DNA of 64,000 bases from a virus. This document shows, piece after piece, positions 3,225-61,749 of this stretch. The stretch is from the IMG/VR virus record IMGVR_UViG_3300036859_000816, positions 67,133 through 131,132 of that record. One strand, given 5' to 3'. The translations under genes were made by a program, and so were the position numbers. Under the pieces are notes generated by a model, which did not search any database, was not told the origin of the DNA, and was given only the letters and a program-made list of their open reading frames with translations. Position 1 is the stretch's first letter. Every line of letters begins with the position of its first letter.

Positions 3225-3228
3225 TTCA

Positions 3229-3938: not shown

Positions 3939-3953
3939 AAAGAAAAATAACGG

Positions 3954-4250: not shown

Positions 4251-4252
4251 CT

Positions 4253-35922: not shown

Positions 35923-36705
35923 TCAGAGTGAGATTTTACGACGCGACCAAGCCCAATACGCACCCATGCCGATGGCTGCGAAAACCGCGCCGCCGAGAAT
36001 CGGTCCGAGCCAGCGCGCGCGAGCGAACCACGGAGCGAGGTAGGCCTGCCAGATCAGCGGCGCGAGATCATGGTGCCCAGCGTGACTGTAGTCATTGCCG
36101 GCACCGTCGGCGCTGCCCGGGACCACGTAATCGGCCCAATAGAGGGCACCCATGCGCCACCATCCGCCGCTCGCTGCCGGCGCTGGTGCCTTGGGCATAA
36201 CCGACCGCGGACGGCGGCCCGTGGCCGCCTGGACGGCATTCCAGACCGATAGCCAGCTCTTGCGCCCGGTCAAGTAGTCAGCGCCACCGCTGTTGGATGC
36301 CGTGGAGACGAACAGTTTGTCTCCGCGCGCGGCGTCGATGCCCATGGCAACGTACCCGCGTTTGGGCGGGTCGCTGAAGCCGGAGAACGTAGCATCCGAC
36401 AGAACCATGGCGCTCAGGCGCGCTCGATCGGCATCGACGGCTGCGAGCTTGTTCAAGAGGCCATGGCCGGCGCTGTAGGCCGCGAGCGCGATCTGATCGA
36501 CCTGGTCGAGCTCGACTTTCGCATATGTCCGAACCAACGCCGGCAGAATGCGACCAGTCCCGTCGCGCAGCTGTTCGGCTAAATTTGAAAAGTAACTCGA
36601 GGCCTCGTGCACGATCGGAACAATGCGCACGTCACGGCCGAACCAATTAATCTGCTTGAACGTATCACGCAGAATGATCGGTCCGGCGAAGAAAACGAGA
36701 TCCAC
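35923..36705 (-). CDS. alpha/beta-hydrolase-like protein with C-terminal TM anchor
   Basis: ALAAYSAG nucleophile-elbow-like motif, LSDA, late His (SHAGHH); hydrophobic tail then WSRRK. Confidence 0.55.
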   Translation of the reverse strand: MDLVFFAGPIILRDTFKQINWFGRDVRIVPIVHEASSYFSNLAEQLRDGTGRILPALVRTYAKVELDQVDQIALAAYSAGHGLLNKLAAVDADRARLSAMVLSDATFSGFSDPPKRGYVAMGIDAARGDKLFVSTASNSGGADYLTGRKSWLSVWNAVQAATGRRPRSVMPKAPAPAASGGWWRMGALYWADYVVPGSADGAGNDYSHAGHHDLAPLIWQAYLAPWFARARWLGPILGGAVFAAIGMGAYWAWSRRKISL

Positions 36706-36722
36706 GTTTCAACGCAACGGGC

Positions 36723-37460
36723 TCAGAGCTTTCTGATGATGATGTTGACTTCGGGCGTTTCGATGTCTGCTGTGTCCAAAATATTGCGCGCAACGATGTC
36801 GATAAAATCGTTGAACACGAGATCGAACTTCTGGACAACGGTTAGAGCATGAAATGCATCGACGGTATCGAATGTCTCGATCTGGCTCGTATTCACATCG
36901 GTCGTGTTTCCAGCTAGAGCCCCATTTAGATCGACAGTCATTTCAACGTCTGTCGGAACCACAGGAGCTGGTTCTTGTCCGGAACTGATGAGTAAGCTCA
37001 ACGCCGCTGTAACTTCGAACGGTGCGGGTGGTCCCTTGTACGTCATGCGACCGGTATTCACGTCGACGATAAACCCCGATGCGGGACTCAGATTGAAGAC
37101 CGACCATTGACCGGGACTTGCTGATGTTAGGCGCTCCCAACGGTTGGCTGAGAGTATGTCGAACTTTGGACTGGTCAGAACGTTGGTACCTTGCCAGAAT
37201 CCCGAGAGCGCACCTGCGCTGGACATCAGAATCCAGCGTCCCGGACCGCCAAGCGGCTGCACAACGAGCGTACCTAACGGCGCTGCAGTGCTGAGCTTAT
37301 CGAGCACGTAAAACGATCGGTTTTCGATCACGAAACAGAGCGACCCGTTGGGTAGCTCATTAACGATGATGTTCTGCAGACTGTCGCTATCGTTGAAGCC
37401 TAGAACGCTTGCGCGTGGTGCGAGCAATCGCAGGGCCGTGTCAGCAAGTCGGTCAGTCAT
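36723..37460 (-). CDS. fibre/receptor-binding-like paralog 1 (MTDRL...GPGRW N-domain + variable beta-rich C-domain)
   Basis: shared N-terminal ~80 aa with four other ORFs. Confidence 0.65.
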   Translation of the reverse strand: MTDRLADTALRLLAPRASVLGFNDSDSLQNIIVNELPNGSLCFVIENRSFYVLDKLSTAAPLGTLVVQPLGGPGRWILMSSAGALSGFWQGTNVLTSPKFDILSANRWERLTSASPGQWSVFNLSPASGFIVDVNTGRMTYKGPPAPFEVTAALSLLISSGQEPAPVVPTDVEMTVDLNGALAGNTTDVNTSQIETFDTVDAFHALTVVQKFDLVFNDFIDIVARNILDTADIETPEVNIIIRKL

Positions 37461-37505
37461 GAATTTAGCTCCAATCGATCAGTCACAGCATGCTTTCAGA
37501 GTCGT

Positions 37506-38270
37506 TTACTCGAACGGTGTGGCGACGAGATGCAAACGGGTTACAACCATGGATTCGGATACTGGCTCGAGTCCGAGATCGGAATTAGTGATGACCGGAC
37601 GAACCACGTCACCAGCAGTCAAAATTACCGACCGAGCGGCTGCCAGCGATTGAAACGGAGCAATGTTCGTTTCCACTGCTTCGGTACCATCATTGTTTGT
37701 CGTAAAGAGACGGTCGTGTACTCCACCGGTAAATAGGTCAGATGTGAGTCCGAGTTGGAAAAGGCTCGAAGTGTTGAGCTCCATACTGACGTACGATTGC
37801 AGCAGATAGCGGCGCGTGGGACCGAGATATGTGAGCGTTCCTTGGAATTGATCCAAGCTAAAAACGGGTGCAAAGACACCGGCGTAAATAACCGTCGGCG
37901 GCTGCGATGTTGGTCCTGCTACCCAAGTCTCAGCTGGGGACGGAGCAGCAACCGCCAGCGACGGTCCCGCGAAGTTCGTCGCAATGAGAAACACCTCGGC
38001 TGACAGTTGCGCCTGCGATGAGCCAGACGCGAGCAAGATCCAACGACCTGGCCCGCCAAGCGGAATGATTACTACGCCAAGAACTGCGGCGGAGCTGTTG
38101 TCGAGCTTGTCGAGCCGATAGAGGCCCTCGGTTGAATTGACCCAACAGAGCGCACCATTCGGCAGCTCGTCGGTGATGACGTTTTGCAGGCTGTCGTGAT
38201 CGCCAAAGCCTTCGGCGTTCGCGCGTGGCGCGAGAAGTCGAAGGTCACCGTCAGCAAGTCGGTCGGTCAT
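37506..38270 (-). CDS. fibre/receptor-binding-like paralog 2
   Basis: MTDRLADGDLRLLAPRA...LQNVITDELPNG...GPGRW. Confidence 0.65.
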   Translation of the reverse strand: MTDRLADGDLRLLAPRANAEGFGDHDSLQNVITDELPNGALCWVNSTEGLYRLDKLDNSSAAVLGVVIIPLGGPGRWILLASGSSQAQLSAEVFLIATNFAGPSLAVAAPSPAETWVAGPTSQPPTVIYAGVFAPVFSLDQFQGTLTYLGPTRRYLLQSYVSMELNTSSLFQLGLTSDLFTGGVHDRLFTTNNDGTEAVETNIAPFQSLAAARSVILTAGDVVRPVITNSDLGLEPVSESMVVTRLHLVATPFE

Positions 38271-38286
38271 GACAAATTCCTCACTT

Positions 38287-38488
38287 TTACATTACGGCGG
38301 TAACGATGTAATCAGTCGAAGCCTTGATCAGGATGTAATACGATTCAAATTCGGTGACGTAAACATAAGCATCCGTCATTCAGCGGATCGGTGATGATGT
38401 TCTGCAGACTGTCTCCGTCGCCGAATCCAGTAAGTACGGCTCGCGCGGCGAGGTGACGGTACGCAACAGCTCCAAGTCTCTCAGTCAT
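38287..38488 (-). pseudogene. frameshifted, truncated copy of the MTERL N-terminal domain
   Basis: MTERLGAVAYRHLAARA...LQNIITDPLNDGCLC, then an extra T; removing it restores YVTEFESYYIL, followed by an early stop. Confidence 0.7.
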
Positions 38489-38514
38489 GGTTCAAATCCT
38501 CACGGTCGAGCGGT

Positions 38515-39255
38515 TTATTCGAATGGTGTCACAACCAAATGCTGACCGTTCACTTCGATGCCGCCATCTGGGTCAGCTTCGTTCTGGTTTTGGTATGCAA
38601 CTTGAATCGTATCTAGGTCGCTCAGCAGAATTATTCGCTCCGCGGCCAGAACAAAAAGATTCGCGGTGCCCGTTGCGCTGATCAAGGCTTGTTCGGCAAA
38701 TGGCTGATCACTGCCGATTCGATCACCGCTGACGTCTGCCGTTATTCCAATGTCGTCACCATTGGGCGCTGCGAGATTCGCGGAAACCTCGATTTCGAAC
38801 AACCGCGGCGGTCCGTGATACGTCAGCACGCCGCTCGACAAGTCAGCGGTGAATATTCCGTTGGCTGGTAACGTGGCCGAGTATGCAACGGGAGGCGGCG
38901 GGAAAATGTTACCGGCTGTCCAGGTTCCAACCGGTGCGGACGGTACAACCGGATTTCCCCAGGCAACAACGTTCAACAATGTCTCAGCGGAGAACTGCGT
39001 TGCAAACGATCCAGCGAAGACCAGAATCCAGCGTCCCGGGCCCGCGAGCGGTTGAACGATGAAACCGGCGACGGGTGCGGCCGTGGAACGCCGATCGAGC
39101 AAGTAATATGCTTTCTCAACGACGACGTAACAGAGACACCCGTCGTTGAGCGGGTTGGTGATGATGTTTTGCAGGCTATCGCCGTCGCCGGTTCCGTTGA
39201 GGACGGCTCGTGCACCCAAATGACGGTACGCAACAGCTCCAAGTCTCTCGGTCAC
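38515..39255 (-). CDS. fibre/receptor-binding-like paralog 3
   Basis: GTG start VTERLGAVAYRHLGARA...LQNIITNPLNDG...GPGRW. Confidence 0.65.
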   Translation of the reverse strand: MTERLGAVAYRHLGARAVLNGTGDGDSLQNIITNPLNDGCLCYVVVEKAYYLLDRRSTAAPVAGFIVQPLAGPGRWILVFAGSFATQFSAETLLNVVAWGNPVVPSAPVGTWTAGNIFPPPPVAYSATLPANGIFTADLSSGVLTYHGPPRLFEIEVSANLAAPNGDDIGITADVSGDRIGSDQPFAEQALISATGTANLFVLAAERIILLSDLDTIQVAYQNQNEADPDGGIEVNGQHLVVTPFE

Positions 39256-39362
39256 GGCGTATGGTGGGCCTTTCTCGGGACTTTTTTGTTGTCCGTTGGC
39301 GCCATCATTGATGGTCGCCCGCGTGCTGTCAAAAAAATCGCTTCTTTTCGTCTCGAGGCGGC

Positions 39363-39581
39363 CTACCGCACCCGTTCCCAGCGCATACTCGCCTGGCAAT
39401 CCACGCGTTCCCAGCGCTGTTGGGTCACACAGTCGGCCATAAATTTGTCGGTCTTCATGTGGCTGACGAAGTAGCCCTGGGCCTCGCGTTGCGTCCGACC
39501 GTAGAAGGTGTGTTGCACGACCGGATAGTCCGTGCCCGCGCCGGCAGGTTCGTAAATGTCAACGATCAATTTCCAGAGCAT
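39363..39581 (-). CDS. hypothetical protein
   Basis: start overlaps the stop of the M15 peptidase gene. Confidence 0.5.
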   Translation of the reverse strand: MLWKLIVDIYEPAGAGTDYPVVQHTFYGRTQREAQGYFVSHMKTDKFMADCVTQQRWERVDCQASMRWERVR

Positions 39582-40144
39582 CAGCTTTGCCTCCGACGTT
39601 GCCAGGCCTGCCACCCAGCGTAACCAATTGCCGCGACCGATCCCGTCACCGCGGCACCGATCAGAGCCGCGCGACCAAACGGCATGGATGTTTGAATGCT
39701 GGCCTCGATCTCCGAGCAGTAAACCGAACTGGGGCAGACTTGTTCGATCGTCAGTCCTGGATGCCACTCGAAGTGGCCGATATCGGGAAATCCTGGAAAG
39801 TAGCCGCCCCATTTCCCGCCCATGGCTTGCCACATGTCGCCGGCAGTGCGGTACGCATTCTGTGGTTGCATCTTGCCGGCGCTGTCGATTGGATCAACGT
39901 CAACGGCGCGACCGAGCACATGCCAGGACAAGCAGCCGCTTGCATAGGTGACGATGTCGCCGCCCGCGGTCCGGCCTTGGGCATAGATGGTGTTCTGCTC
40001 AGTGCACGTCCGCCGACCGCCTTGACGCCGGATCTGTAAGTGCAAGCCCGTCGCCGCACCGAAACGTGCCGCCAAATCTTGCATGCGCCCGCGGGTTTCC
40101 CATTGGAGTCCGGGCAGCAAATTGTGCGGGTCGTAGAGCGTCAC
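39581..40144 (-). CDS. M15-family L-Ala-D-Glu peptidase (endolysin-like) with C-terminal TM anchor
   Basis: RT..EQ..IYAQGRT, SWH..GRAVD, WGG.F..F.D.GHFE; hydrophobic tail then WQRRR. Confidence 0.85.
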   Translation of the reverse strand: MTLYDPHNLLPGLQWETRGRMQDLAARFGAATGLHLQIRRQGGRRTCTEQNTIYAQGRTAGGDIVTYASGCLSWHVLGRAVDVDPIDSAGKMQPQNAYRTAGDMWQAMGGKWGGYFPGFPDIGHFEWHPGLTIEQVCPSSVYCSEIEASIQTSMPFGRAALIGAAVTGSVAAIGYAGWQAWQRRRQS

Positions 40145-40192
40145 CACCCGAAAAATAGCATTGACCGGCCGATCAGCGGTACTTTTGCCGTC

Positions 40193-41233
40193 ATGCCCGG
40201 TCTGGACGACGACACCCTCATCCAACTCTTGCAGATGACAGCCGAATCGATGGAAGTCGATCCGGAGGGCGTTGAGATCACGGACGAGCTCGAGGACGAG
40301 GTCGAAGCCTACGAAGCCGCACTGCAAGACGCTCTTGAGCTGGTGGCCAAAGGGTTTCCGCCAAGTAGTGACGTCACAGCCGAGGATCTCTGGGATGCCG
40401 AGGCGTCCTATTTGGTGCTCATGACCTTGCGCGGCGAAGGCGTGGGCATCTGGGACGGCAGCTGGGACGAGTTTTTCGATGAACGCGAGATCGAAGACGT
40501 TGAGCGTTTGCTCAAAAGCAAGCTGCGGTCCTTTGCCGACGAGTCTGGTGGCGGCAGCTTGAACGAAGCACTCATGAATGCCGTGGACGATACGGCTGGC
40601 GATGCGGGAGATGAAGACGAGGACGAGGAACCTGAGGAGGACGAAGGCGAAGAAGACGACGAGGAATACGAGTCGAACAAGAAGCTGCCGCTCAGGCGTA
40701 ATGCTATTGACCATAAAACTACGCCGCCAGAGGGTTTTGAGGTGTTTCGGGATCCGAGCGATGGTTGGAGATTTCGATCCATAGACGATCGCGACTTTCA
40801 AAGCCTCGGTTACACAACGCGCAAAGCTGCGTCTTTAGCGGCTTGGCGTCACGTTCAACGTCATAGAGAGCCTCGGGAGTACGAGTCGAACAAGAAACTG
40901 CCGCTGCGGCGCAACGCGCCGACTGAGCTCGCTCTCAACGCACGTAGAGCTAAGTACATCTACCGAGTGCGCGGCACAGCGGGCGCGTACGCCGACCGGG
41001 ATCGAGATTTTCGACATGGTCGTCACACCGTTTACATGGATGTCTCCTCTGAGGATGAGGCACGCGAAGCGGCAGAAAACTTCATGCAAAGTGAGCGTCC
41101 GCAAGGTCGCGAGGCGCGCGTGTGGATCGAGGAAACAACGCCGCGTACGGGCGAATTTTCTCAAGTCGCCAAATGGATCGACGGCGGACGTGGCGAGTGG
41201 AAACTCGACTATGACCGCAAACCTACTGCATAA
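40193..41233 (+). CDS. acidic multi-module protein with duplicated YESNKKLPLRRNA linker
   Basis: acidic domain with GEGVGIWDG, poly-D/E stretch, two linker copies, small downstream modules. Confidence 0.7.
   Translation: MPGLDDDTLIQLLQMTAESMEVDPEGVEITDELEDEVEAYEAALQDALELVAKGFPPSSDVTAEDLWDAEASYLVLMTLRGEGVGIWDGSWDEFFDEREIEDVERLLKSKLRSFADESGGGSLNEALMNAVDDTAGDAGDEDEDEEPEEDEGEEDDEEYESNKKLPLRRNAIDHKTTPPEGFEVFRDPSDGWRFRSIDDRDFQSLGYTTRKAASLAAWRHVQRHREPREYESNKKLPLRRNAPTELALNARRAKYIYRVRGTAGAYADRDRDFRHGRHTVYMDVSSEDEAREAAENFMQSERPQGREARVWIEETTPRTGEFSQVAKWIDGGRGEWKLDYDRKPTA
40667..40918 (+). repeat. imperfect 39-bp direct repeat encoding YESNKKLPLRRNA (40667-40705 and 40880-40918)
   Basis: identical peptide with synonymous DNA differences. 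Confidence 0.85.
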
Positions 41234-41246
41234 CTAAGGCTTAGAT

Positions 41247-41678
41247 ATGTCACGCCGCGAGCTCAGCACCGCCATCCACGACCAAATCGATGACCTGTTC
41301 GTCGACGATGAGCACGGTCAGCTCGATGAAGCGCCCCACATTCGACTCGTGCTCATCCGCGACGGCGAGCAGATCGTAGACAACCTAGACGATACCGATC
41401 TGGATGACACCGACATTCGTTACCTCGAGAGCTGCCGCGGCGGTGTCATTGTGACGATACTGCGCGATGGAACGTACAGCATTCGGTACTTCACTGATGA
41501 GGACGCGCTCGAAGATCAGTGGTCCGATATGTGCGAAGACGTCGATGGTGGCGCCGCGCCCATGACCGTCCGGTCGCTCGACGCTGAAGAAGAAGGCGAC
41601 GAAGGCGCTGGCGAGCGGGAAGACGAAGACGAAGAAGACGAAGAAGACGATGATGATTTGGACGACGAAGAGGAGTAA
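41247..41678 (+). CDS. highly acidic hypothetical protein
   Basis: 143 aa with D/E-rich tail. Confidence 0.65.
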   Translation: MSRRELSTAIHDQIDDLFVDDEHGQLDEAPHIRLVLIRDGEQIVDNLDDTDLDDTDIRYLESCRGGVIVTILRDGTYSIRYFTDEDALEDQWSDMCEDVDGGAAPMTVRSLDAEEEGDEGAGEREDEDEEDEEDDDDLDDEEE

Positions 41679-41680
41679 GC

Positions 41681-42103
41681 ATGCCACGCCGTAAACACCG
41701 TAAGAATGCTGAGCAACCCACTGAGCGCGATGTCCAAGACGCAGTCGCTGTCATTACGCGCGACTACTACGGGGACGTCGCAAGCGTTGGAGACGAACTG
41801 ATTCAAGGCATCAAAGACGGCGAGATCGCCAGTCCCGACGACTTTCATGATGCTCTACACGATGCCATCGATGGCACACAGCGCGTGATTTACACCTGGC
41901 AAGCGCGACTCGGTGTGCTCGTGAGCGAAAACCATGACGCTTACTTCGAAGAAGGTCTTGGTCCGCTAGATTGCAGTGAGAGCGTTCCTTGGGAACAGCT
42001 CATGTTCGCAGCTATGGAGCGCGATGTCGTCGAGTACATGGATCGCGAGGGTGTCGATCCGAGCGACGATGCATCGTACGAAAGCGACGAAGACGAGGAC
42101 TGA
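41681..42103 (+). CDS. acidic hypothetical protein (Ocr-like composition)
   Basis: GAGGAG RBS; LHDAIDG...VIYTWQA; strongly acidic. Confidence 0.6.
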   Translation: MPRRKHRKNAEQPTERDVQDAVAVITRDYYGDVASVGDELIQGIKDGEIASPDDFHDALHDAIDGTQRVIYTWQARLGVLVSENHDAYFEEGLGPLDCSESVPWEQLMFAAMERDVVEYMDREGVDPSDDASYESDEDED

Positions 42104-42106
42104 ACG

Positions 42107-43078
42107 ATGGTTGTACGAGGCCAAGACATCGAATACACACCCGGCAAAGGACGCGGTAGCCGGCGCAAAGGTCGCATGGGCGCGAGGGCAATCATTCATA
42201 CGGACGATGATGGTGAAACTTTTTACGTGAGCGTACACGACACCATTGCAGGACAGCTCACATCTGAATTTCCCGAGGTCTCAACTGCTTTCTCCGATCT
42301 CGACGCTGCGGATAAATGGGCAGCTGAAACTCTATTGGCTCGCAAGCGAACATGGTTAGGAGCATCCATGCAACGTAACGCGCATCAACCACTTGCTATA
42401 TCGGGCACGGCTTATCAATTCGAAGGCTTGAATTGGCGGCGCTCTTCCGACGAAGATTGGGAAACCGTCATGTATAGCCCGTATGGCGAGCGCGTACGGT
42501 TCGTGGGCGAGCGCGTCATCGATGGCTCACCCGTGCATGTCTGGCGCGCGGGTCCGATGAGGTTCATTGCGCAGTTGGCTCACATGTCGCCGAACGCTGC
42601 GCCTCCACCGCCGCCTCGGCGCCGTCGCACTGCCGATCCTTCATTGCGCCGCGTTCGCGCCATCGTCGAGCGCGAAGAGCGGCCCTTCGAACCCGAGCGG
42701 CGCTATCCGCGCGAAACCAAGCCGCATCACTTCGTCGTCAATGCTGAGCCGTTCCGTGAACCCGATGAAGAAGTCGCCGGCTATGGGATTTGGTACGGTC
42801 CGGATGGACCGGACGGCGATGTTGCGACCGAAGTCGAAATCGAACACCTGGGCTATGAGCGCGACCGCTATATCGTGCGCGAGTACCACCATGCCGAAGG
42901 CTATATTGATGACTACGATCCCGATGAGCCGTTTTTAGTCGTCGAAACCCTGGTTGACAAAGCGGATCTGCCGGATGTCGACGATCGTTTGGCTTTACGT
43001 TACGCCGCGGCTATTGGTGTCCAGCAGATGTCCGAACGCGGCGGCGAGGAGTCGTGGGCTTCGGAACTACCGCGCTAG
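42107..43078 (+). CDS. multi-module hypothetical protein
   Basis: modules separated by MQRNA, MSPNA and FVVNA. Confidence 0.65.
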   Translation: MVVRGQDIEYTPGKGRGSRRKGRMGARAIIHTDDDGETFYVSVHDTIAGQLTSEFPEVSTAFSDLDAADKWAAETLLARKRTWLGASMQRNAHQPLAISGTAYQFEGLNWRRSSDEDWETVMYSPYGERVRFVGERVIDGSPVHVWRAGPMRFIAQLAHMSPNAAPPPPPRRRRTADPSLRRVRAIVEREERPFEPERRYPRETKPHHFVVNAEPFREPDEEVAGYGIWYGPDGPDGDVATEVEIEHLGYERDRYIVREYHHAEGYIDDYDPDEPFLVVETLVDKADLPDVDDRLALRYAAAIGVQQMSERGGEESWASELPR

Positions 43079-43090
43079 AGGTATCTCGAT

Positions 43091-43495
43091 TCAAACAACG
43101 ACGCCGGCCGAGCGCTTGATTGCTGAAATTTCCTCTTTACGCCAGTACGGTATGTCATCGTAAACATCAACGCTGTATCGACCAGTATTAATATCAATGG
43201 GACTGATCATTACGTCACCGCGCATGGTTTTGTTCAACCCGTACACGATCTGCGATGCCGTATTCACGCTCGGCGCCCAACCCCAGCTATAGTGGCGGCC
43301 TCGCCAGTTGCCGACTATTTCATACTTTGTCGGCACTTCGTACGGACCATAGACGTCGTACCACTTCTGCGGCTCGGCAACCTGCATTGCTCGCTTGACC
43401 TGAGCAGCCATCGTCCAAACGTTGGAGCCCAAATACAGCGTCCAGCCGGTGTATTGGTTCCATTCCCAAACGGTGTAGCGCGTCCGCATCGCCAA
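43091..43495 (-). CDS. hypothetical aromatic-rich protein
   Basis: 134 aa ORF with internal two-module similarity. Confidence 0.5.
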   Translation of the reverse strand: MAMRTRYTVWEWNQYTGWTLYLGSNVWTMAAQVKRAMQVAEPQKWYDVYGPYEVPTKYEIVGNWRGRHYSWGWAPSVNTASQIVYGLNKTMRGDVMISPIDINTGRYSVDVYDDIPYWRKEEISAIKRSAGVVV

Positions 43496-43538
43496 TGAGT
43501 GTCGTCCCGCTCACCCAGAGTCGTCAATTTTTCGCGCA

Positions 43539-43928
43539 CTACCAGGCGCAGTAGCCGCCCAAGCCCGCCGGAGCGACCGGAACTTCTGGTGCTGGAGCGA
43601 CGACCGGCTGCACTGCGATGGGAACTTCGTGGTGAATCACCGTGCGCATGCCTTGGCCGACGTACGCGCCGACCATCATGCTCAAGAGGTCCACGATCTG
43701 GTTGATTCGGCTCTCGCCGACGCCGCGATGAAAGACGGCTTCAGGATCGCGCGCTTTGATTGCTTCCACGGCGCCCTCTGCCACTAGAGCAATCACCAGA
43801 GCAACCTTTGGATCGATGCCAGCTAGACCTGCTGCCGTGCCGACACCGAAGTGCATCGCCGTGGAAAGATCGACGGCCGCGATGCCGGTTTCGTGCTCAG
43901 CAGTAGCTAACCAAGTTCGCGTGGTCAC
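43539..43928 (-). CDS. small membrane protein, paralog of 46218-46592
   Basis: D.S...HFGVGTAAG...GES..NQ..D.L. Confidence 0.6.
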   Translation of the reverse strand: MTTRTWLATAEHETGIAAVDLSTAMHFGVGTAAGLAGIDPKVALVIALVAEGAVEAIKARDPEAVFHRGVGESRINQIVDLLSMMVGAYVGQGMRTVIHHEVPIAVQPVVAPAPEVPVAPAGLGGYCAW

Positions 43929-43971
43929 GTTGGAAGCTTCGCACGCATGGCCTCGGTCGTGCAAGTTTTGG

Positions 43972-44241
43972 CTACCAGTAGACTTCCCAGAGCTGCCAAC
44001 CGACGACTCCCGTCTTGAGTCCGCCATAGCGTCTAGTCCCGAGCTGAACTCGTCCCGCTCGTTTCACTTTGCCCTTGCGCGCGAGCGATGCGAGCACGCG
44101 GTAAGCGACCTCAGGCGGAATGTTCAGTGCGGCTGCTACATTGTCCGTTGTCGCACGTGCAAAGCGTCCGTATTCATCGCGATCATCGGATTCGTAGCGG
44201 ATCCAATCGTACGCGAGCGGTTCGAGCTCGGCTAACGTCAT
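43972..44241 (-). CDS. winged-helix-like DNA-binding protein
   Basis: TTDNVAAALNIP.EVAYRVLASLARKGKVKR. Confidence 0.55.
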   Translation of the reverse strand: MTLAELEPLAYDWIRYESDDRDEYGRFARATTDNVAAALNIPPEVAYRVLASLARKGKVKRAGRVQLGTRRYGGLKTGVVGWQLWEVYW

Positions 44242-44245
44242 GATG

Positions 44246-45550
44246 CTAACGCTGGGCGACGACGCGACCATATTGATCAACGACAGGATCGCCGCGGCGC
44301 CAATCCTTGAAAAAAGCTCCGCTGCTCTGACCGAGCCGCGCATTGTGTCCGTGGTTCAACATGCTGGGCAGATCGATACGATGTTCCAGCAATGATGGCG
44401 CATGGATGCAGATCCATTTACCGCGCTGGCAGATGACTTCACTGAGCGCCAAATCTTGGTCGTTTAGTCCCGGATGGATGTCAAACCACAGCTTTGAGCG
44501 TTCTCGAATCCACGGCACGTCACGACGATGTATGAGCGTCCCCTGTGAATAGGCTATGCGACAATTCGTCCAACGACACTTTGTTGGGATCTTACGCCAC
44601 TTGCGGTCGAATGAAGAGTACGTCGAGCCGCCCGCATCGAACACCCAACCGACGCCGAAGCGCGGGTCGTCGAGCTCGGGCCACGTGCTGAGGTTGTACA
44701 GAATGTGGCGATTCACGTCGACATCGTCTTCAAGGCGCAGCACGAGATCAGTATCGGCGGCGGCAAGCCGGTCCAGTACGGCCAAAAAGTGCTCGCGACT
44801 GTTGTGCTCCGGTCGCTGAAACATGACATCGTAATTCGTACCGATATCGGACGCTTCGATAGCCTGGCGCACCTGCTCCCAACCTGGCCGCGGCTGCGGC
44901 GGAGCCTGAACTACGACGGTAATCGAACGCGTGCTCTTCGGCGTATTACCAAACGGCTGGCTGTAGCGTTCTTGCCCGGGCAGACCGCCCCATTTGCTCA
45001 GGTAATACGCGCGGCTGTGCGACGGATCGAGCTCAGCAACCGAACCTGCTTTCGCCAATGTGGCCGAACGGACGTGTTGAGCATCGGAGCGCAATGATGT
45101 TCGTTCGATGCCAGCGTGGCGCATTCGGAACGCGTAGTCGTTGTCTTCATAGTACGCGGGATAGAATTTTTCATCGTAAGGACCGACCCTGCGAGTGCAC
45201 TCGGCAGATTGACCAAACAGCGCCCAGCCGAGGCCGCATTCTACGAAGATTGCGCCGCTATCGAGCGCTTGAACTAGAAGCCGAAATGTGTCGTGGCCAA
45301 GTGTCACGTCGTCGTTCGCAATGATGACGCTTTCACCGTTCGCGCGCTCCAGTATGCGGTTCCACGAAGCGGCGACGCCTAGGTTTCGTTCTGGTCGAAT
45401 GACTTCGACGTTCGGCAACGTCGGCGTTGGTAAGGTTCCGCCGTTATCGACGATAACGTAGCCGCTTGGACGCATCGAGCCGCGCTCGGCTGAATCCAGC
45501 AAGTGCGCCAAGAGTTCGTAACGGTTCAGCGTCGGTACGCCTAAGAGCAC
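44246..45550 (-). CDS. GT2 glycosyltransferase fused to a second GT-like domain
   Basis: GVPTLNR, IVDNG, NLGVAASWN, NDD, YYEDNDY; second domain with LRLEDD. Confidence 0.8.
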   Translation of the reverse strand: MLLGVPTLNRYELLAHLLDSAERGSMRPSGYVIVDNGGTLPTPTLPNVEVIRPERNLGVAASWNRILERANGESVIIANDDVTLGHDTFRLLVQALDSGAIFVECGLGWALFGQSAECTRRVGPYDEKFYPAYYEDNDYAFRMRHAGIERTSLRSDAQHVRSATLAKAGSVAELDPSHSRAYYLSKWGGLPGQERYSQPFGNTPKSTRSITVVVQAPPQPRPGWEQVRQAIEASDIGTNYDVMFQRPEHNSREHFLAVLDRLAAADTDLVLRLEDDVDVNRHILYNLSTWPELDDPRFGVGWVFDAGGSTYSSFDRKWRKIPTKCRWTNCRIAYSQGTLIHRRDVPWIRERSKLWFDIHPGLNDQDLALSEVICQRGKWICIHAPSLLEHRIDLPSMLNHGHNARLGQSSGAFFKDWRRGDPVVDQYGRVVAQR

Positions 45551-46203
45551 GGTCGCCTCCACTGCTTTGCAAAAGCGCCGCGCGTTGTAGCGGTACCGCG
45601 AACACTGTGTCGATGTTTCAATGTGCTGGGCAAATCGATGCGGTGCTCTACAAGCGCCGGAGCATGAATTGCAATCTGACGACCGCGTTCGATGATTGCG
45701 CAACTCAGCGCTTGATCTAAGTACTGGTGTTGATGTGGCGGCTTGCGCGTGAACCACTGAGCGCATAGATCCCGGATATCTGGCAAGGCTTGGCGAGGAA
45801 ATACAATTGCCTGCGAGTACGGCAACGTATTCTTGTGCCACCTGGTTTCCGTCGAAGGACGGCCCGCTTTACGATCGACGTCTTTCCAACCACGACCACC
45901 CGGATCGAAGAGCCAACCTGCGCCGAAACGCGGGTCGTGCACGGCGTCCCAAGTCATGATGTTGTGCACGATGTGTTCATTGACATCGACGTCATCTTCG
46001 AGCCGCAGACACAATTCTGCGCCCGACTCGAACAATTGATCCAAGGACGCCAGTACATGATCCGCGAGTGAGCGCGTTGGCGGATGAAAAATCACTTCGT
46101 AGTTCGTGCCAATGTCCGAAGCTTCAATGGCCGCGCGGACTGTTTCCCAGCCCGGTCTGCCCGGCGCATGACAGGCTTGAACGACGACGGCCAGACTGCG
46201 CAT
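45541..46203 (-). CDS. glycosyltransferase-like protein (paralog of the C-half of 44246-45550)
   Basis: AIEASDIGTNY, LRLEDDVDVN, YSQ, D.ALS, HAP.LVEHRIDLPS. Confidence 0.65.
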   Translation of the reverse strand: MRSLAVVVQACHAPGRPGWETVRAAIEASDIGTNYEVIFHPPTRSLADHVLASLDQLFESGAELCLRLEDDVDVNEHIVHNIMTWDAVHDPRFGAGWLFDPGGRGWKDVDRKAGRPSTETRWHKNTLPYSQAIVFPRQALPDIRDLCAQWFTRKPPHQHQYLDQALSCAIIERGRQIAIHAPALVEHRIDLPSTLKHRHSVRGTATTRGAFAKQWRRPCS

Positions 46204-46217
46204 AAGCTATTTCTAGC

Positions 46218-46592
46218 TCAATGCTGCCCGCATTTGCCACCACATTTGCAGCCGCCTGCGCAGCCGAGTGCTCCGATACCAGTCGGAGCAGCCGGTGCTG
46301 TGGTAGCGCTACGCACCACCGCACCAGTGTAGACGCCGGCAACGGTGAGCAGTACATCGGTGATTTGGTTCAGGCAGCTCTCGCCGGGTTGGCGCCGTGT
46401 CAGGCCGGCTTCACCGCGGCGTGCGACTTCGATCGCGGCCTTGTAGCCGAGAGCCGCAAGAATCACGAGCACGGGACTGACGCCCAGCACACCGGCAGCC
46501 GTGCCGATACCGAAGTGCGCAGCGCTCCGCGAGTCGAGCGCGGCTATGCCCTGCTCTTGCGCGTTATTGGCAACGACGGGAAACTGGCGCAT
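46218..46592 (-). CDS. small membrane protein, paralog of 43539-43928, with Cys-rich tail
   Basis: D.RS..HFGIGTAAG...GES..NQITD; CAGGCKCGGKC. Confidence 0.6.
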   Translation of the reverse strand: MRQFPVVANNAQEQGIAALDSRSAAHFGIGTAAGVLGVSPVLVILAALGYKAAIEVARRGEAGLTRRQPGESCLNQITDVLLTVAGVYTGAVVRSATTAPAAPTGIGALGCAGGCKCGGKCGQH

Positions 46593-47294
46593 TCACAACC
46601 GCGTCCAGTCGCCGTTCAGCATTCCCTCGATACTCCAGACATCCGGCTCATAGCCGAGTTGAAACGCGGCACGCTCGAGTGCTTCGAGTGAGTTGGGCGC
46701 GCGCACATGTGTCACGGCTGTGCCGCCGGCCGGCGCACTGTAGGTAATCTTGTACCAATTGAGCTCGCCGTGGGGACGCGCTTCGTTCGCTTCCATTTCG
46801 GTACTGGGCGTCAACACAATCGCATGCCAGATGCTTTTCGCGGGAAACGCGATTACTTTTTCGCCTTCAACACGAAAGTTTCTGAGCCTCTCACCTGAAT
46901 GTAGCACTCCAGCATCTCTGAGCGCTTTGGCCAGAGTGTTCCGATCTGAAAATGCATTATCCGGCATGGCGACCGGACCCATGCGATCTTTATCGCTCGG
47001 ACTGATCTTGTGCACGAACTTCACGTCGTAATATTCGACGCCGGCCGGATTCGCTGCCACGCCTCCACCGGCATAAATGTGCTCACCGCTGCCCGCACGA
47101 TAGATGCGCATGATCTCGAAGCTACCTGCTCGCGGATCCTTGCCGTGGCTCACTGCTCGATCGTGGCTTCCCTCCGTAGCGCTGATGCGCGCGTACGTCC
47201 GCGCGGTCTGTGCATCGTATGGTCCCCAGGGACCTTCCGTATCCAGCGGCATGTTGTCGCGATCAAGCGCCCAGACCCAGTATTGCTCGGCCAT
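46593..47294 (-). CDS. multi-module hypothetical protein
   Basis: three modules separated by VAANP and MEANE; first module shared with 47296-48147. Confidence 0.7.
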   Translation of the reverse strand: MAEQYWVWALDRDNMPLDTEGPWGPYDAQTARTYARISATEGSHDRAVSHGKDPRAGSFEIMRIYRAGSGEHIYAGGGVAANPAGVEYYDVKFVHKISPSDKDRMGPVAMPDNAFSDRNTLAKALRDAGVLHSGERLRNFRVEGEKVIAFPAKSIWHAIVLTPSTEMEANEARPHGELNWYKITYSAPAGGTAVTHVRAPNSLEALERAAFQLGYEPDVWSIEGMLNGDWTRL

Positions 47295-47295
47295 G

Positions 47296-48147
47296 TTAAT
47301 TCTCGCGTCCGGTTTCAATGAAGCGCCAAGCTGCAAGCCGTGCTGCCTTGCGCGTCCTGTGGCCGTAACTCCGGAAGTTTGGGTCACTTATAGGGCGCCA
47401 CTTCCAGCCATACAAATAGTCGTTTGAGTCACGGTAAACCTCGTAGCCTTCCGGCGCGCGTGCTTCTTTTTCGCGTTGGCTCTCGTTTGCCTCGAAGCCT
47501 TCGGAGCCAGCAGGAAATATCCGGTGACCGCTGCCCGCGCGATAGATGCGCATGATCTCGAAGCGCTGCGGATCGGCGCCACGGCTGACGGCGCTATCAT
47601 GCGTACCCTCTTGCGAACGAGCTCGCGCGTACGTCTTCGCGGTCATCATGTCGAACGGACCATACGGACCGTAGCCGGCGAGTGGCACGTTGTCGCGCCC
47701 GAGCGGCCAGACGTAGTACTCGGCATTGCTTCGAAACGTGCTGCGGTCCAATCCTTCACGCTCATCCTCGTACGATTCGCTGCGCGTGTGTCCTTCGAAC
47801 AGATCCATCGCTTCGTCCCGAATCATGCGTGGCGCGATCTCGCGTGGTGCAAAGCCGGGACCCTCAATCAGGAAGAAGTGCGCGTCCGCCTGCTGCGTGA
47901 GCATGTGATCGATGACTTTCATCGCTTCATTGCGCTGGCGTACCGTCATATTGCCCACACGCATGAGGTGCGTGCCGGATTCGTACGGCATCCACAGCAA
48001 CGGCTCACCGGTCCAATGTTTAAGAACGAACGTCTTGTCGTGCATCAAATCCGAACGCCGAAAGCCCGTGAACTTTCCGGTTTCTTTGACGATGGCCTGC
48101 ATGTGCTCGAACAGGTCGCGGCGCTCATCGGGTCTTGGTTCGGCCAT
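47296..48147 (-). CDS. multi-module hypothetical protein
   Basis: modules separated by FRSNA and FEANE; shares modules with 46593-47294 and 40193-41233. Confidence 0.7.
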   Translation of the reverse strand: MAEPRPDERRDLFEHMQAIVKETGKFTGFRRSDLMHDKTFVLKHWTGEPLLWMPYESGTHLMRVGNMTVRQRNEAMKVIDHMLTQQADAHFFLIEGPGFAPREIAPRMIRDEAMDLFEGHTRSESYEDEREGLDRSTFRSNAEYYVWPLGRDNVPLAGYGPYGPFDMMTAKTYARARSQEGTHDSAVSRGADPQRFEIMRIYRAGSGHRIFPAGSEGFEANESQREKEARAPEGYEVYRDSNDYLYGWKWRPISDPNFRSYGHRTRKAARLAAWRFIETGREN

Positions 48148-48154
48148 GTAATCC

Positions 48155-48883
48155 TCAGAGGATACGAGCAGATAAGCGCATAAATGGTATCAGCAAATCG
48201 TCCGCGTTGGTCATGTTGCGAAATGCGCCCGTAATCGTTTGATTTGGTTCGATTTTCACCCAGCGTTCCACCGAGTACATGACCGACAAGGTGTCATCGG
48301 CCAAGGTCGTCGTTTCCTGAGCTTCGGCCGTTGTCGTATCTGTGCCGATGAGATCGCCATCGATGTCAATGGCGAGCTGAATGAGCAGCTGCACAGGATC
48401 AGATTCGGGCGGTCGTATCGATGCCTGCGCGCGCACGACAATGTTCGTCGGCTCGGCGCCGACATAGGTCATTACGCCTGTCTTGAACTCGATAAGAAAT
48501 GGAGACGTTGGATTGAACGGATTCCAGAACACAAACTGACCGGGTTGCGCTGCCCAGAATGTCGAACCATCGACGAAGCTTACCGTGGGTGGTCCGCCTG
48601 TTACGACTTCGCTTTGCCATGCAAGATTCGGATCGACAGGAGAAACGAGCAACACCCAACGACCAGGACCAGCGAGCGGCTGAACTACTTTCGTACCCGA
48701 AGGCGTATCCGTGCTGTCCTTGTGCAGTACGTACAGCGATTGGTTCTCAATGACGTAGCAGAGCGAACCGTTCGGCAGTTCGGTCGTGATGATGTTCTGC
48801 AAGGCATCGCTGTCGCTAAAGCCGAGAACACGAGCTCGAGGTCCGAGTATACGAGTATCTACGCTCGCGATGCGGTCAGTCAT
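48155..48883 (-). CDS. fibre/receptor-binding-like paralog 4
   Basis: MTDRIASVDTRILGPRA...LQNIITTELPNG...GPGRW. Confidence 0.65.
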   Translation of the reverse strand: MTDRIASVDTRILGPRARVLGFSDSDALQNIITTELPNGSLCYVIENQSLYVLHKDSTDTPSGTKVVQPLAGPGRWVLLVSPVDPNLAWQSEVVTGGPPTVSFVDGSTFWAAQPGQFVFWNPFNPTSPFLIEFKTGVMTYVGAEPTNIVVRAQASIRPPESDPVQLLIQLAIDIDGDLIGTDTTTAEAQETTTLADDTLSVMYSVERWVKIEPNQTITGAFRNMTNADDLLIPFMRLSARIL

Positions 48884-48893
48884 CGACGCTTGC

Positions 48894-49865
<972 letters not shown>

Positions 49866-53279: not shown

Positions 53280-56722
<3,443 letters not shown>

Positions 56723-58774: not shown

Positions 58775-59047
58775 TTATCGACCAGCTTGCTTCAACGCCC
58801 AGTTGCTAGCCTGAAGAAACAGCCACGTCGTTGCCGTCAACGCTACAGACAAATTGAGCGTTTCCGTGAGCGCGTCCGGCTTCGGCGCGACGAGACCGAA
58901 CGCACGAGCATGCGCCTCTTCAAATTCGCGCGCATACGCCGGCTGCGCGGGACTCAAGATGTCATCGAGCGCTACCTTGACGATGTAGCCGCCGCCGATA
59001 ACCGTTGCCGCGGTCAATAGAAGGAGCTGACGATCTTGGTCAGTCAT
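58775..59047 (-). CDS. small membrane protein
   Basis: two hydrophobic segments. Confidence 0.5.
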   Translation of the reverse strand: MTDQDRQLLLLTAATVIGGGYIVKVALDDILSPAQPAYAREFEEAHARAFGLVAPKPDALTETLNLSVALTATTWLFLQASNWALKQAGR

Positions 59048-59051
59048 ACGG

Positions 59052-59648
59052 TCAACTCAATGAAACACTCACAGGCAGTAGCGACCACGCTCCGGGTTGA
59101 GGCAACTGAATGCCGCACTCGGCTACATGTTTGGGCACGCTGAGTTGCCGGCCGGTTTCGCACCACAGACCTTGGTGTCCGGGTGCCGTGCCGAATGACA
59201 AACCTAAGCCGTGTACGGCGAGCCATGCTGCGGGTTCGTACGGTTTGCCGATTCGGGTGGTACCGTCCGGGGCGCGCTCCAGTTGGTAAACGGCAAAGCG
59301 CAGCTGACGCGCCAAACCGATTTGTTGCCCAACCATGACGCGTTCGCCCAGGCCGACCTGGATCTGTTCCAGACCCGTGTAGTCCAAGACGACCGCTTCG
59401 TCGCTCGCCGCAATAGCGACGGAACCGGGCGCCACGGCGGCAACGGCTCCCGGCGCCATGGCGTACACCGGCTGCCCTCCCGAAGCTTGCAGGGTCACGG
59501 CTGGGTCGCAGCCCGTCATGCCCGCGCACTGCTGCGCGAACGCGTTCTCAATCACCAGGCGCTTGGGTCGGTAAAGTGCCCGCACAAGAGCAGCTGTGCC
59601 CAATCCGCCAACGAGTAGAGCGCCCCAGGGCAACATCGAACGAGCCAC
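59052..59648 (-). CDS. M23/LytM-fold-like protein (probably lacking Zn ligands) with N-terminal TM
   Basis: GQPVYAMAPGAV, VGLGERV.VGQQIG, LRFAV, EPAAWL; AGGAGG RBS. Confidence 0.6.
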   Translation of the reverse strand: MARSMLPWGALLVGGLGTAALVRALYRPKRLVIENAFAQQCAGMTGCDPAVTLQASGGQPVYAMAPGAVAAVAPGSVAIAASDEAVVLDYTGLEQIQVGLGERVMVGQQIGLARQLRFAVYQLERAPDGTTRIGKPYEPAAWLAVHGLGLSFGTAPGHQGLWCETGRQLSVPKHVAECGIQLPQPGAWSLLPVSVSLS

Positions 59649-59658
59649 GTCATCCTCC

Positions 59659-59988
59659 TTATCGAACTAGACCACCGAGTAAAACGCCGACGGCTACACC
59701 GATCGCTCCGACAGCAATGAAAGCTCCCAACGACGGGGTACTCGAGGCTGGACAGAACTTCAGGCTCTGCACTGCCGCGTCCATTGTCTTGGCGTCAACC
59801 TGGTAACCAGCACGGATCGCCGCGCAACCCGATACCCTCGATGGAGCGGTAGTATTGATGCATTCCTCGAATTCCTGCGAGTAGCAGGGCTGCGTGCGCA
59901 CCGCAGCAAGGGCCGAGCTCAGCGTCGCGCTGGTCGCCGGCAGATCAGCACCAAAGGGTAGATGCGGGGCATAGAGCGCGTACGCCAT
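59659..59988 (-). CDS. small Cys-containing protein with C-terminal TM anchor
   Basis: four Cys; LGAFIAVGAIGVAVGVLLGG tail. Confidence 0.55.
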   Translation of the reverse strand: MAYALYAPHLPFGADLPATSATLSSALAAVRTQPCYSQEFEECINTTAPSRVSGCAAIRAGYQVDAKTMDAAVQSLKFCPASSTPSLGAFIAVGAIGVAVGVLLGGLVR

Positions 59989-60180
59989 CGCATCATGCTA
60001 CCGGCCGGTCGGGACCATCGTCCAATTTTTCGATAGATCCACCGTGGCGCGCGATCCAGTCCTTTACAGCGACGAACGGGCGCCCAACCATCCATCGACC
60101 GATCGGTGCCGCCGACCACACATGCTCGCCGCGCACGACGATAGAGAACACCGCATAAGGTAGTTCAATCCGATACCAGA

Positions 60181-60717
60181 TCATCTCAAACCAATCGGCC
60201 GTGGCTCGCCTTCGAAGGCCTGCAGTAGGCACGGGCCCCGGTATCCGATTGGAATGCCCATGACGTACTCAGCAATGGCATCGGCAGTCAATTCGACGGT
60301 ATCCGTATCGCGCTGTTTCCAACCGCTGCGCCACTTGCGCCACTGCTTGTCAATTCGCGTGTCGTCACCGTCGAACTGCTCACGGCGTTCGATTGTACCG
60401 TCGCGTTGCAGAATGAATTCTGCCGGATAACAGAAGTCGGTCGCATGCCCCAATTCGTGCGCGAGCATGGCGCAGACGGTGTCGTAACCGAGCTCCGCGA
60501 GCTCCGGCGCAACTACGATTTCGCTCCCGTCCTCGAAACAGGCCGCAAAGTGACGCGGCGAATTGTGCACCCAGCGCCGGCAGCGTAGCTGTACACTACG
60601 CACTCGGGAAAGTCCGACGTCGAGAAACTGCTCGCGTACAACGAAAAAGTACGGCTCAACGATAGCGAGCGCCTCTTCCGTTGTGAGATCGGTTTCAGTT
60701 TCAGGACACTCGCTCAC
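60181..60717 (-). CDS. HExxH zinc metallopeptidase-like protein
   Basis: MLAHELGH, downstream E..AD..A. Confidence 0.7.
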   Translation of the reverse strand: MSECPETETDLTTEEALAIVEPYFFVVREQFLDVGLSRVRSVQLRCRRWVHNSPRHFAACFEDGSEIVVAPELAELGYDTVCAMLAHELGHATDFCYPAEFILQRDGTIERREQFDGDDTRIDKQWRKWRSGWKQRDTDTVELTADAIAEYVMGIPIGYRGPCLLQAFEGEPRPIGLR

Positions 60718-60738
60718 GTTCTCAGACTTACTGCCAGG

Positions 60739-61164
60739 TTAAACCTGCGGACCTGGTTTGCCCTGAATGTACGCGATAGCCTGTTGGATCTGCTGACCCG
60801 TGATGTAGCCGGCGTCGATGCCCCCTCGCAATGCGCGCTCGCACTCCTGCGGCGTCAATCCCACGCCGACCATGACGGCGCAGCGCGGACAGCCGATTTT
60901 CGGACGAATGATGCCGTGCTCATCATCCTTGAACCAACCCGAGGGTACTCGCTTGAGGGAGATGTACGTGAGCTCTTCCCAATCGGCTTCCACATGGCTC
61001 GGCAGACCGCAGTGCTGGCATGTGTACTCCGCAATCAGGCCACGTCCGGTCGGTTGAAATGCGGTTGTCGACTTATGCAGCGCTCCGAGACCGTCGCTGC
61101 CTTCGAAGATGCCTCCGAGAGAACTGCGATATTGCTTGACATCTGAGAATGCGTCGTCGCTCAT
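60739..61164 (-). CDS. Zn-finger hypothetical protein
   Basis: CQHCG and CPRC; AAGGAG RBS. Confidence 0.6.
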   Translation of the reverse strand: MSDDAFSDVKQYRSSLGGIFEGSDGLGALHKSTTAFQPTGRGLIAEYTCQHCGLPSHVEADWEELTYISLKRVPSGWFKDDEHGIIRPKIGCPRCAVMVGVGLTPQECERALRGGIDAGYITGQQIQQAIAYIQGKPGPQV

Positions 61165-61747: not shown

Positions 61748-61749
61748 TC

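Follow-up and report, generated by a model that had tools for sequence, protein, structure and literature searches.

The proteins encoded at 40193-43078 on the plus strand and at 46593-48147 on the minus strand of a 64,000 nt stretch of viral DNA (the window; bases 67133-131132 of a single IMG/VR virus record, IMGVR_UViG_3300036859_000816, of 131,132 bases) are members of a large class of modular accessory proteins, all of whose known sequences so far come from uncultured viruses and metagenomes. The class comprises hundreds of related proteins, which are chains of independently folding modules of ~60-130 residues joined by a short signal that ends in asparagine. This Asn joint is conserved and marks the borders of modules. 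Selection acts on its amino acid sequence, and the signal is peculiar to this class of proteins. It reads His, Tyr, Met, Leu or Phe, then any residue, then Pro, Ala or Ser, then Asn, followed by Ala, Gly or Ser; below, these positions are called P4 to P1, with Asn as P1 and the residue after it as P1', and a slash marks the bond that follows Asn. Cleavage of the chain at this bond is the most likely meaning of the joint, with a probability of about 0.55, as judged from the layout and the distribution of the sites.

Conserved asparagine joints at module borders

The joint is best defined in relatives from other viruses. A phmmer search with the window protein P0003 against 1.84 billion representative proteins returned 188 hits at E ≤ 0.001, including 84 at E ≤ 1e-10, and nearly all of them cover P0003 residues ~140-210. 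This region, module A, is ~70 residues long, has no Pfam model, and contains invariant Val, Trp, Pro, Gly-Pro, Arg, Gly, His-Asp, Gly, Tyr and Gly positions. AlphaFold predicts module A of P0003 (residues 141-210) as a strand-strand-helix-strand-strand fold with block means of 91-97 in the predicted local distance difference test (pLDDT), while residues 124-134 have a pLDDT below 50; in the model, the joint is placed in a poorly ordered linker beside a confidently folded domain. An Asn is found 2-6 residues ahead of the first strand in 147 of 153 module A copies. In these 147 copies, P4 is most often His (46), Leu (26), Tyr (24), Met (18) or Phe (8), P2 is Pro (81), Ala (20) or Ser (19), and P1' is Ala (51), Gly (30) or Ser (21). 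Across an alignment of 124 proteins, the joint Asn column is at least 90% conserved, which is comparable to the domain core. The partner domains of module A in these 124 relatives are mostly domains of unknown function (DUF5661 in 16, DUF3140 in 4 and DUF6321 in 3, with HATPase_c in 1).

The same motif recurs throughout these proteins. When module A and the 16 residues upstream of it are masked, the remaining 32,999 residues of the foreign relatives contain 92 matches to the strict motif [HLYMF]-x-[PAS]-N-[AGS], compared to 7.7 in shuffled sequences (standard deviation 2.9; 0 of 300 shuffles). Joint residues account for 370 of the 1551 Asn residues (23.9%) in 185 foreign relatives, many of which carry three to five sites, with five as the maximum, and the stretches between sites peak at lengths of 60-130 residues. 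Tandem joints 5-10 residues apart also occur, and 27 stretches are shorter than 10 residues. Moreover, BLAST matches between these proteins outside module A tend to start and end at the sites, where 12.0% of match starts and 16.1% of match ends are located, compared to null expectations of 4.0% and 4.4%.

The module A family appears to be restricted to uncultured viruses. In IMG/VR, a scan located 12 loci that encode module A, in proteins that have one to five joints and whose neighbours are often further jointed proteins and, as in the window, arrays of fibre-like paralogues; an IMG/VR pattern scan with P0003 as a single protein gave no match. Two peptide patterns run against 185,579 reference prokaryote genomes (one per species) yielded 69 pattern matches, none of which is a module A relative. 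A word-based protein search with module A retrieved four close relatives, none of them named, and the ESM Atlas returned only unnamed clusters with scores of at most 0.81. Foldseek comparison of the whole P0003 model with the Protein Data Bank (PDB) gave nothing at E ≤ 0.001, the best match having an E-value of 0.073.

Within the window, the jointed genes form a tightly packed row on the plus strand and a pair on the minus strand, and a codon model trained on the genome's long open reading frames (ORFs) classifies all six ORFs (P0001-P0006) as coding. The row begins with P0001 (40193-41233, 346 aa), which consists of an acidic N-terminal module C (residues ~1-135), an acidic run, a linker, module B (171-229), a second linker, the joint LALN/A and a C-terminal module (250-346). 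Its sites are YESN (159-162 and 230-233), LRRN/A (167-171 and 238-242) and LALN/A (246-250). Both linkers are copies of the same 13 residues, YESNKKLPLRRNA, which contain the joints YESN/ and LRRN/A; copy 1 lies at 40667-40705 on the plus strand, and copy 2, together with the PTELALN/A that comes next, spans 40880-40942. The second gene encodes P0006 (41247-41678, 143 aa), an acidic protein with no joint that resembles the P0001 N-terminus at 28% identity over 135 aa (E 3e-6, with composition correction off), a similarity that may be compositional. P0005 (41681-42103, 140 aa) follows; it starts with a basic leader of nine residues ending in HRKN/A (residues 6-10, 41696-41710). The last gene of the row encodes P0004 (42107-43078, 323 aa), in which a first module, MQRN/A (88-92, 42368-42382), a second module, MSPN/A (160-164, 42584-42598), an Arg/Pro-rich unit, FVVN/A (209-213, 42731-42745) and a C-terminal module succeed one another. 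The Arg/Pro-rich unit is ~50 residues long and ends in HHFVVN/A.

On the minus strand, P0003 (47296-48147, 283 aa) has an N-terminal domain (residues 1-~125), FRSN/A (138-142, 47722-47736), module A (47518-47724), FEAN/E (218-222, 47482-47496) and module B (47299-47466), and it ends in GREN. P0002 (46593-47294, 233 aa) begins with M-AEQYW, the start of its module A (47070-47291), which is followed by VAAN/P (79-83, 47046-47060), a middle module, MEAN/E (167-171, 46782-46796) and a C-terminal module. The first-pass annotation of this region, which proposed polyproteins whose shuffled modules are delimited by a hydrophobic-x-x-Asn motif, had listed 13 such sites, and the translations, together with a listing of every Asn, place all 13 where it put them. 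The module that it saw in both P0002 and P0003 is real: P0002 residues 4-89 and P0003 residues 143-238 share 52% identity (E 9e-26). Module B is likewise shared, between P0001 residues 152-226 and P0003 residues 214-282 (44% identity, E 3e-13). The border between the two minus-strand genes (47292-47301, GAG AAT TAA C ATG) is suggestive, as P0003 ends in Asn and P0002 starts with Met-Ala one base on, so that the gene border is located where an N/A joint would be; as a site, GREN is a poor match (-2.0 bits on the matrix described next).

How far these sites exceed chance depends on how the motif is defined. In the form first described, Phi-x-x-N (Ile, Leu, Met, Phe, Val, Trp or Tyr three residues before Asn), it occurs at 15 of the 32 Asn residues in the six ORFs and at 358 of the 1101 in the rest of the genome. 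The 15 occurrences compare to a shuffle mean of 8.7 and were reached by 28 of 2000 shuffles, and their density is 10.2 per 1000 aa, compared to 9.3 elsewhere; the whole genome contains 373 occurrences vs 344.7 expected (z 2.0), and the genome outside the six ORFs 358 vs 336.4 (z 1.3). This loose form is close to background and, on that definition alone, the finding is weak. It is a sharper version of the described pattern that is conserved at the joints, namely [H/Y/M/L/F]-x-[P/A/S]-N followed by A/G/S. In the six ORFs, Phi-x-x-N-A occurs 8 times vs 0.88 expected (0 of 2000 shuffles) and [HLYMF]-x-x-N-[AGS] 9 times vs 1.3 (0 of 200 shuffles), while the other 188 ORFs contain 51 instances of the latter vs 49.6. 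The site HRKN/A had been considered only a partial fit; His is in fact the commonest P4 residue (111 of 355 sites).

Because the in-window counts were made post hoc, independent evidence was sought in the relatives, which provide the decisive support and show the signal much more strongly than the window does. A site matrix was built from 139 foreign module A sites, excluding the proteins of this genome and the four closest relatives. Applied to the whole genome, it detects 18 sites of at least 8 bits vs 16.1 in shuffles, and therefore no genome-wide excess. The six ORFs, with 3.7% of the residues, contain 6 of these 18 sites (0.66 expected), and the other 12 lie outside; the 6 sites include that of module A itself, which cannot count as independent. 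Overall, 12 of the 13 listed sites score 4.3-11.1 bits (HRKN/A of P0005, for example, scores 8.8 bits), and the other 19 Asn residues of the six ORFs score at most 3.7 bits. The single Asn of P0006 scores -8.3 bits. MPDN/A (P0002 residues 110-114), which is absent from the first-pass list and fits Phi-x-x-N-A, scores -0.6 bits and is thus probably not a joint. As the matrix excess is confined to the six ORFs, the signal belongs to this protein class; it is specific to it and is no code shared with particle proteins. The enrichment across the genome that the first-pass annotation had expected is absent, with the motif at shuffle level outside the six ORFs, and a genome-wide maturation code was rejected for the same reason.

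Close relatives retain the joints while exchanging the modules between them. P0007-P0010 have the N-terminal domain of P0003 and are 65-90% identical to it overall, and their divergence occurs at joints. In particular, P0008 has a P0002-type module A after ERNAN/ and a different small module after VAAN/A; P0009 has extra modules between FRDN/, YESN/ and FEAN/; and P0010 has another cassette between FRSN/ and YDSN/, ending two residues past FEAN/. In an alignment of nine proteins (A6), namely P0004 and eight relatives, a joint precedes the second module (column ~175) in 8 of 9 proteins, with different modules on both sides; the HM..N/A joint also occurs in eight of the nine, and HHFVVN retains its N212 in all of them. 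In two P0004 relatives, an entire additional module, which is also the last module of P0008, stands between two joints, and in P0179 and P0180 an Arg/Pro-rich unit ending in H-F-A-V-N is followed by module C. Similarly, the P0001 relatives P0165-P0168 retain the double linker (..N/KK.PLR.N/) and LA[LTA]N/, and the cassettes that they carry between the linkers are of four different kinds. Another 28 proteins contain module C, either at one of their ends or in the middle, and most of these have Asn joints beside it. The homologue check covered 12 of the 13 listed sites, all except MEAN/E (8.3 bits on the foreign matrix), and these 12 hold in relatives. The earlier view that the motif sits at module borders is therefore borne out in the P0003, P0004 and P0001 families, and by the BLAST match ends.

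The sites are constrained at the level of the peptide. Between the two copies of YESNKKLPLRRNA there are 6 differences in 39 nt, all of them synonymous; the Asn codons of the sites are a mixture of AAC and AAT, the flanking codons vary, and the sites have no DNA word in common. Synonymous-only differences and varied codons indicate a constraint on the peptide and not on a DNA word, and the same observations rule out a DNA-level recombination site. Helix capping was ruled out as well, since the residues after the Asn lead to a strand in module A and vary in sequence elsewhere, and so was an internal start codon at a P4 Met, since His, Tyr and Leu are as common at P4.

The Asn also depends on what precedes it. 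It is missing in 3 of 7 module A copies located at the protein N-terminus, compared to 3 of 146 internal copies (Fisher p 0.001), which indicates that the Asn is needed when there is chain upstream and is dispensable when there is none. The three N-terminal copies that lack it start with MAEQYW, MSEQYY and MIRPTSAG. Methionine aminopeptidase removes Met before Ala, and its removal would leave P0002 with the N-terminus that module A of P0003 would gain from a cut at FRSN/A. An equivalence between a Met-Ala start and N/A had been proposed from the two window copies, and the contrast between N-terminal and internal copies supports it.

Probable cleavage after asparagine and its alternatives

On the most likely reading, the joint is a processing site, at which the chain would be cut after Asn. 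Such a cut would free the modules and remove short leaders and spacer peptides, in the manner of a viral polyprotein or of the VENN joint of CdiA; tandem sites would excise spacers of 5-10 residues. This reading is favoured because defined P4, P2, P1 and P1' residues stand in disordered linkers, because sites occur in tandem, because leaders end in the motif (22 of the 185 foreign relatives have a leader of 3-13 residues that does so, as in P0005) and because modules are freely exchanged. The cut could be made by a virus enzyme, for which P0193 and P0194 are candidates, by a host enzyme, or by the chain itself through Asn cyclisation. As the modules upstream of the joints are mutually unrelated, an enzyme acting in trans seems likelier than self-cleavage.

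P0193 (60181-60717, minus strand, 178 aa), which contains the sequence HELGH, had been put forward as a candidate protease, and it is a predicted small zincin-like metallopeptidase. It matches no Pfam family; homologues with 48-54% identity occur in 5 of 5 related virus records, and the repeat at the opposite contig end contains a second copy. Its structure model has a pLDDT of 76, with only one of five models confident, and its best Foldseek matches are minimal zincins (abylysin and selecase, E 0.004-0.07, none at ≤ 0.001), while a profile search against PDB sequences gave nothing at E ≤ 1. Complex prediction of P0193 with the linker and module A scored 0.00, compared to a mark of 0.32; it was run without controls and speaks neither for nor against binding. 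No result ties this conserved, zincin-like protein to the motif. All seven members of this HExxH family (60181-60717; L018-L022) have an invariant terminal Arg-Pro-x-Gly-Leu-Arg and an invariant Cys near the start. P0194 (G000 37416-37961), a protein with a transglutaminase core, occurs in 4 of 5 related records, and the fifth is a 14% fragment.

Several observations weigh against processing. P0193 and P0194 are core genes of the lineage, so their co-occurrence with the motif proves nothing, and the cut itself is something that we infer, with no protease tied to the motif by any result. Genome searches gave no match to legumain (C13, PF01650), for which the control matched in 1 of 14 genomes, to Trypsin_2, for which controls were positive, or to Peptidase_S78, for which controls were positive in four genomes. 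The in-window counts were made on proteins that had been picked first, and two of the sites come from the duplication of a single 13-residue linker. FVVN of P0004 scores only -0.8 bits on the foreign matrix. About 9 of the 92 strict matches lie inside conserved domains (FDAN/[SG]QW five times and [FLY][VWI]SN/A[IL] four times), the remainder being in linker-like context. Among the 185 relatives, 22 have a site in their first 15 residues vs 13.7 expected from site density, a mild excess (~1.6-fold) that lends little support to a reading as a targeting leader. The strongest objection is that module A is the last domain in 129 of 153 copies, a fixed place that is unexpected if modules are simply freed; it could be a common handle that is cut off, or the chains could act whole.

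Whole-acting chains are what a different reading of the joint describes, in which it is a short linear motif that is never cut and serves either as a docking or recognition tag for a common partner (possibly a chaperone, an assembly or delivery factor, or a host protein) or as a preferred hinge that allows any two modules to be joined without misfolding. This is a possible explanation, though clearly a less probable one than cleavage. The C-terminal place of module A is as expected under it, the location of the motif in linkers, often in tandem 5-10 residues apart, would suit avidity, and nothing ties the motif to a protease. A hinge, however, does not need a near-invariant Asn with defined P4, P2 and P1' residues; the frequent loss of Asn when nothing lies upstream (3 of 7 vs 3 of 146) is at odds with an uncut tag; and a small residue after Asn, together with a hydrophobic residue or His three before it, is the layout of a protease site, by comparison with 3C-type sites. 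A purely accidental origin, with the motif reflecting chance, composition or a leftover of gene recombination and having no role in the protein, is very improbable. It would account for the near-background frequency of the loose form in this genome, and the in-window counts, made once the proteins had been picked, do not speak against it; but it fails to explain the 92 strict matches vs 7.7 in foreign relatives, the Asn before 147 of 153 module A copies and Asn columns that are invariant or at least 90% conserved, nor does a recombination remnant agree with linker copies that differ only synonymously and sites that lack a common DNA word.

Processing could also proceed without a protease, as a sub-case of cleavage in which the Asn cyclises to a succinimide (asparagine-lyase chemistry), and this appears unlikely. 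The model for it is CdiA, in which the last Asn of VENN cyclises and the N2908-A2909 bond is cut (PMC13625785, in its accessible text). The joint has Asn at P1 and mostly Ala at P1', which is the same bond; His is its commonest P4 residue; and the legumain and Trypsin_2 searches found no fitting protease family in the genome. In CdiA, however, a conserved upstream pretoxin domain catalyses the cut, according to the available portion of a preprint (bioRxiv 10.64898/2026.05.07.723447), whereas the upstream modules here are mutually unrelated; P4 is often Leu, Met, Tyr or Phe, which are unable to catalyse; and no match to PT-VENN (PF04829) was found in the genome, in a search whose control genomes matched nowhere either. 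The window half of the genome encodes one protein with a match to PCMT (protein-L-isoaspartate O-methyltransferase, E 2e-6), a family that repairs products of Asn succinimide chemistry; this match may reflect the generic methyltransferase fold only.

Genomic setting of the jointed genes

The record is linear according to IMG/VR and ~85% complete according to CheckV. Deposited phages include no close DNA relatives, with low-complexity matches of ~80 nt only. The region around the six ORFs is a variable accessory part of the genome. At E ≤ 0.1, P0001, P0002, P0003, P0005 and P0006 have no Pfam family and P0004 has only a weak match to PF18007; none of the six has a PHROG family worth naming. The region is adjoined by an M15 endolysin gene (39581-40129), and glycosyltransferase paralogues and an array of fibre-like paralogues, some with collagen repeats, are nearby.

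The spacing of the jointed genes suggests coupled translation, as the P0006 stop codon is followed by 2 nt and the P0005 ATG, and the P0003 stop codon by 1 nt and the P0002 ATG. The P0005 stop codon, TGA, is followed by ACG and then by the P0004 ATG in frame (42101-42109), so that read-through of this one stop would fuse both proteins. Each group of jointed genes is adjoined by one of two small paralogous proteins on the minus strand (43539-43928 and 46218-46592), which are 36% identical and have Gly/Ala-rich hydrophobic stretches. The endolysin gene (~39581-40129, minus strand) encodes a C-terminal hydrophobic tail, and an open frame of 406 aa on the same strand (39581-40801) extends it upstream and overlaps the start of P0001 in antisense; in DNA this rich in G+C, such a frame has most likely arisen by chance.

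The fibre-like genes comprise six paralogues (35923-39399, 48155-49832 and G000 58853-59662) with a common N-terminal region, the first ~65-80 residues being 53-69% identical in several pairs, and with varied C-terminal parts. Collagen repeats are found in the fibre-like gene at 48894-49832 and also at 54887-56722. In the related viruses L004, L005 and L007, Asn-jointed proteins likewise adjoin arrays of paralogues, which start with MNFQ.FPPSLL.

The contig begins and ends with a direct repeat of 4.39 kb, the two copies of which (59654-64000 and G000 9-4365, locus L013) have only 80.4% nucleotide identity and encode proteins that are 62-94% identical. Either this is a terminal repeat that has diverged, or the assembly has joined two related strains; the unit length would then be ~126.8 kb.

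Relation to known systems and significance

The closest precedent for the joint described here, by analogy, is the VENN joint of CdiA in contact-dependent inhibition. In both, a four-residue motif ending in Asn lies at the border between constant and exchangeable parts; the Asn-Ala bond is cut in CdiA, as far as the accessible account describes it, and a cut of the corresponding bond here is inferred. CdiA has one joint per protein, after a dedicated pretoxin domain (bioRxiv 10.64898/2026.05.07.723447), whereas the present proteins have up to five joints between unrelated modules. Moreover, CdiA forms secreted filaments and these are intracellular virus proteins, and, unlike in CdiA, the variable parts here are mostly N-terminal and the commonest constant module is C-terminal.

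A second comparison is provided by the polyvalent proteins of phages and conjugative elements, which are mosaic, undergo rapid domain shuffling and contain domains predicted to be released by proteolysis (Iyer, Burroughs, Anand, de Souza and Aravind 2017, PMC5512222, in the text available). There, the processing agents are peptidase domains (MPTase), and the passages on cleavage and processing name no shared inter-domain motif (PMC5512222), which is a feature present here; the word 'linker' is absent from that text. The likeness lies in several unrelated domains per virus polypeptide, arranged as a mosaic among relatives. According to Pfam, none of the polyvalent hallmark domains (MPTase, DNA methylase-helicase, ParB-like, ArdC-N and others) occurs in the window proteins, and the modules here are much smaller than those described in the accessible account of polyvalent proteins.

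Two further systems recognise short motifs in virus proteins. Internal proteins of phage T4 carry a capsid targeting sequence that is cut by gp21, and phiKZ gp175 has comparable substrates, with Glu at P1 in both. They resemble the present proteins in that one short motif is common to many proteins and that a short N-terminal leader can end in it (P0005 and 22 of 185 relatives); they differ in having Glu instead of Asn at P1. Substrates of prohead proteases share their motif across head and particle proteins, whereas here it is at shuffle level outside the six ORFs. A search for the T4-type Peptidase_S77 gave no match in the genome, but its controls matched nowhere either, in contrast to the S78 search with its positive controls. 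Head, portal, terminase and prohead protease families are absent among the first 25 families listed in each of the Pfam and PHROG tallies, which comprise 37, 44, 79 and 75 families. The suggestion that these are packaged polyproteins released by a prohead protease is not sustained, given the missing Peptidase_S78 in a record that is ~85% complete, the lack of head, portal or terminase proteins among the families listed and the shuffle-level motif elsewhere. The 3C-type protease sites of RNA viruses have a hydrophobic P4, Gln or Glu at P1 and a small P1'. The joint is similar in its hydrophobic residue or His at P4, its amide residue at P1 and its Ala, Gly or Ser at P1', but it has Asn where those sites have Gln, there is no Trypsin_2 match here, and this is a DNA virus of bacteria.

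Literature searches on the partner DUFs, on phage polyproteins and on Asn cleavage or asparagine-lyase chemistry found no description of this joint. The motif gives exact borders for hundreds of small modules of unknown function, which can be cloned singly and tested, for example, as anti-defence or host-takeover factors, and the module A family (188 representative clusters, without a Pfam model) merits its own family definition. The joint itself would be a new protease specificity or a self-cleaving tag if it is cut, and a new kind of docking signal if it is not. If the joints are cut, these viruses would have a polyprotein strategy with an Asn-specific code, of which we found no description. 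A bolder version, which is a long shot, is that the joint of four to six residues is a portable, context-independent release signal, either cutting itself without a dedicated flanking domain or being read by a new Asn-specific viral endopeptidase. If true, this would mean that a lineage of large bacterial DNA viruses has true polyproteins, which evolve by swapping modules between joints, and, in its self-cutting form, the joint would correspond in bacteria to the 2A peptides for making several proteins from one gene.

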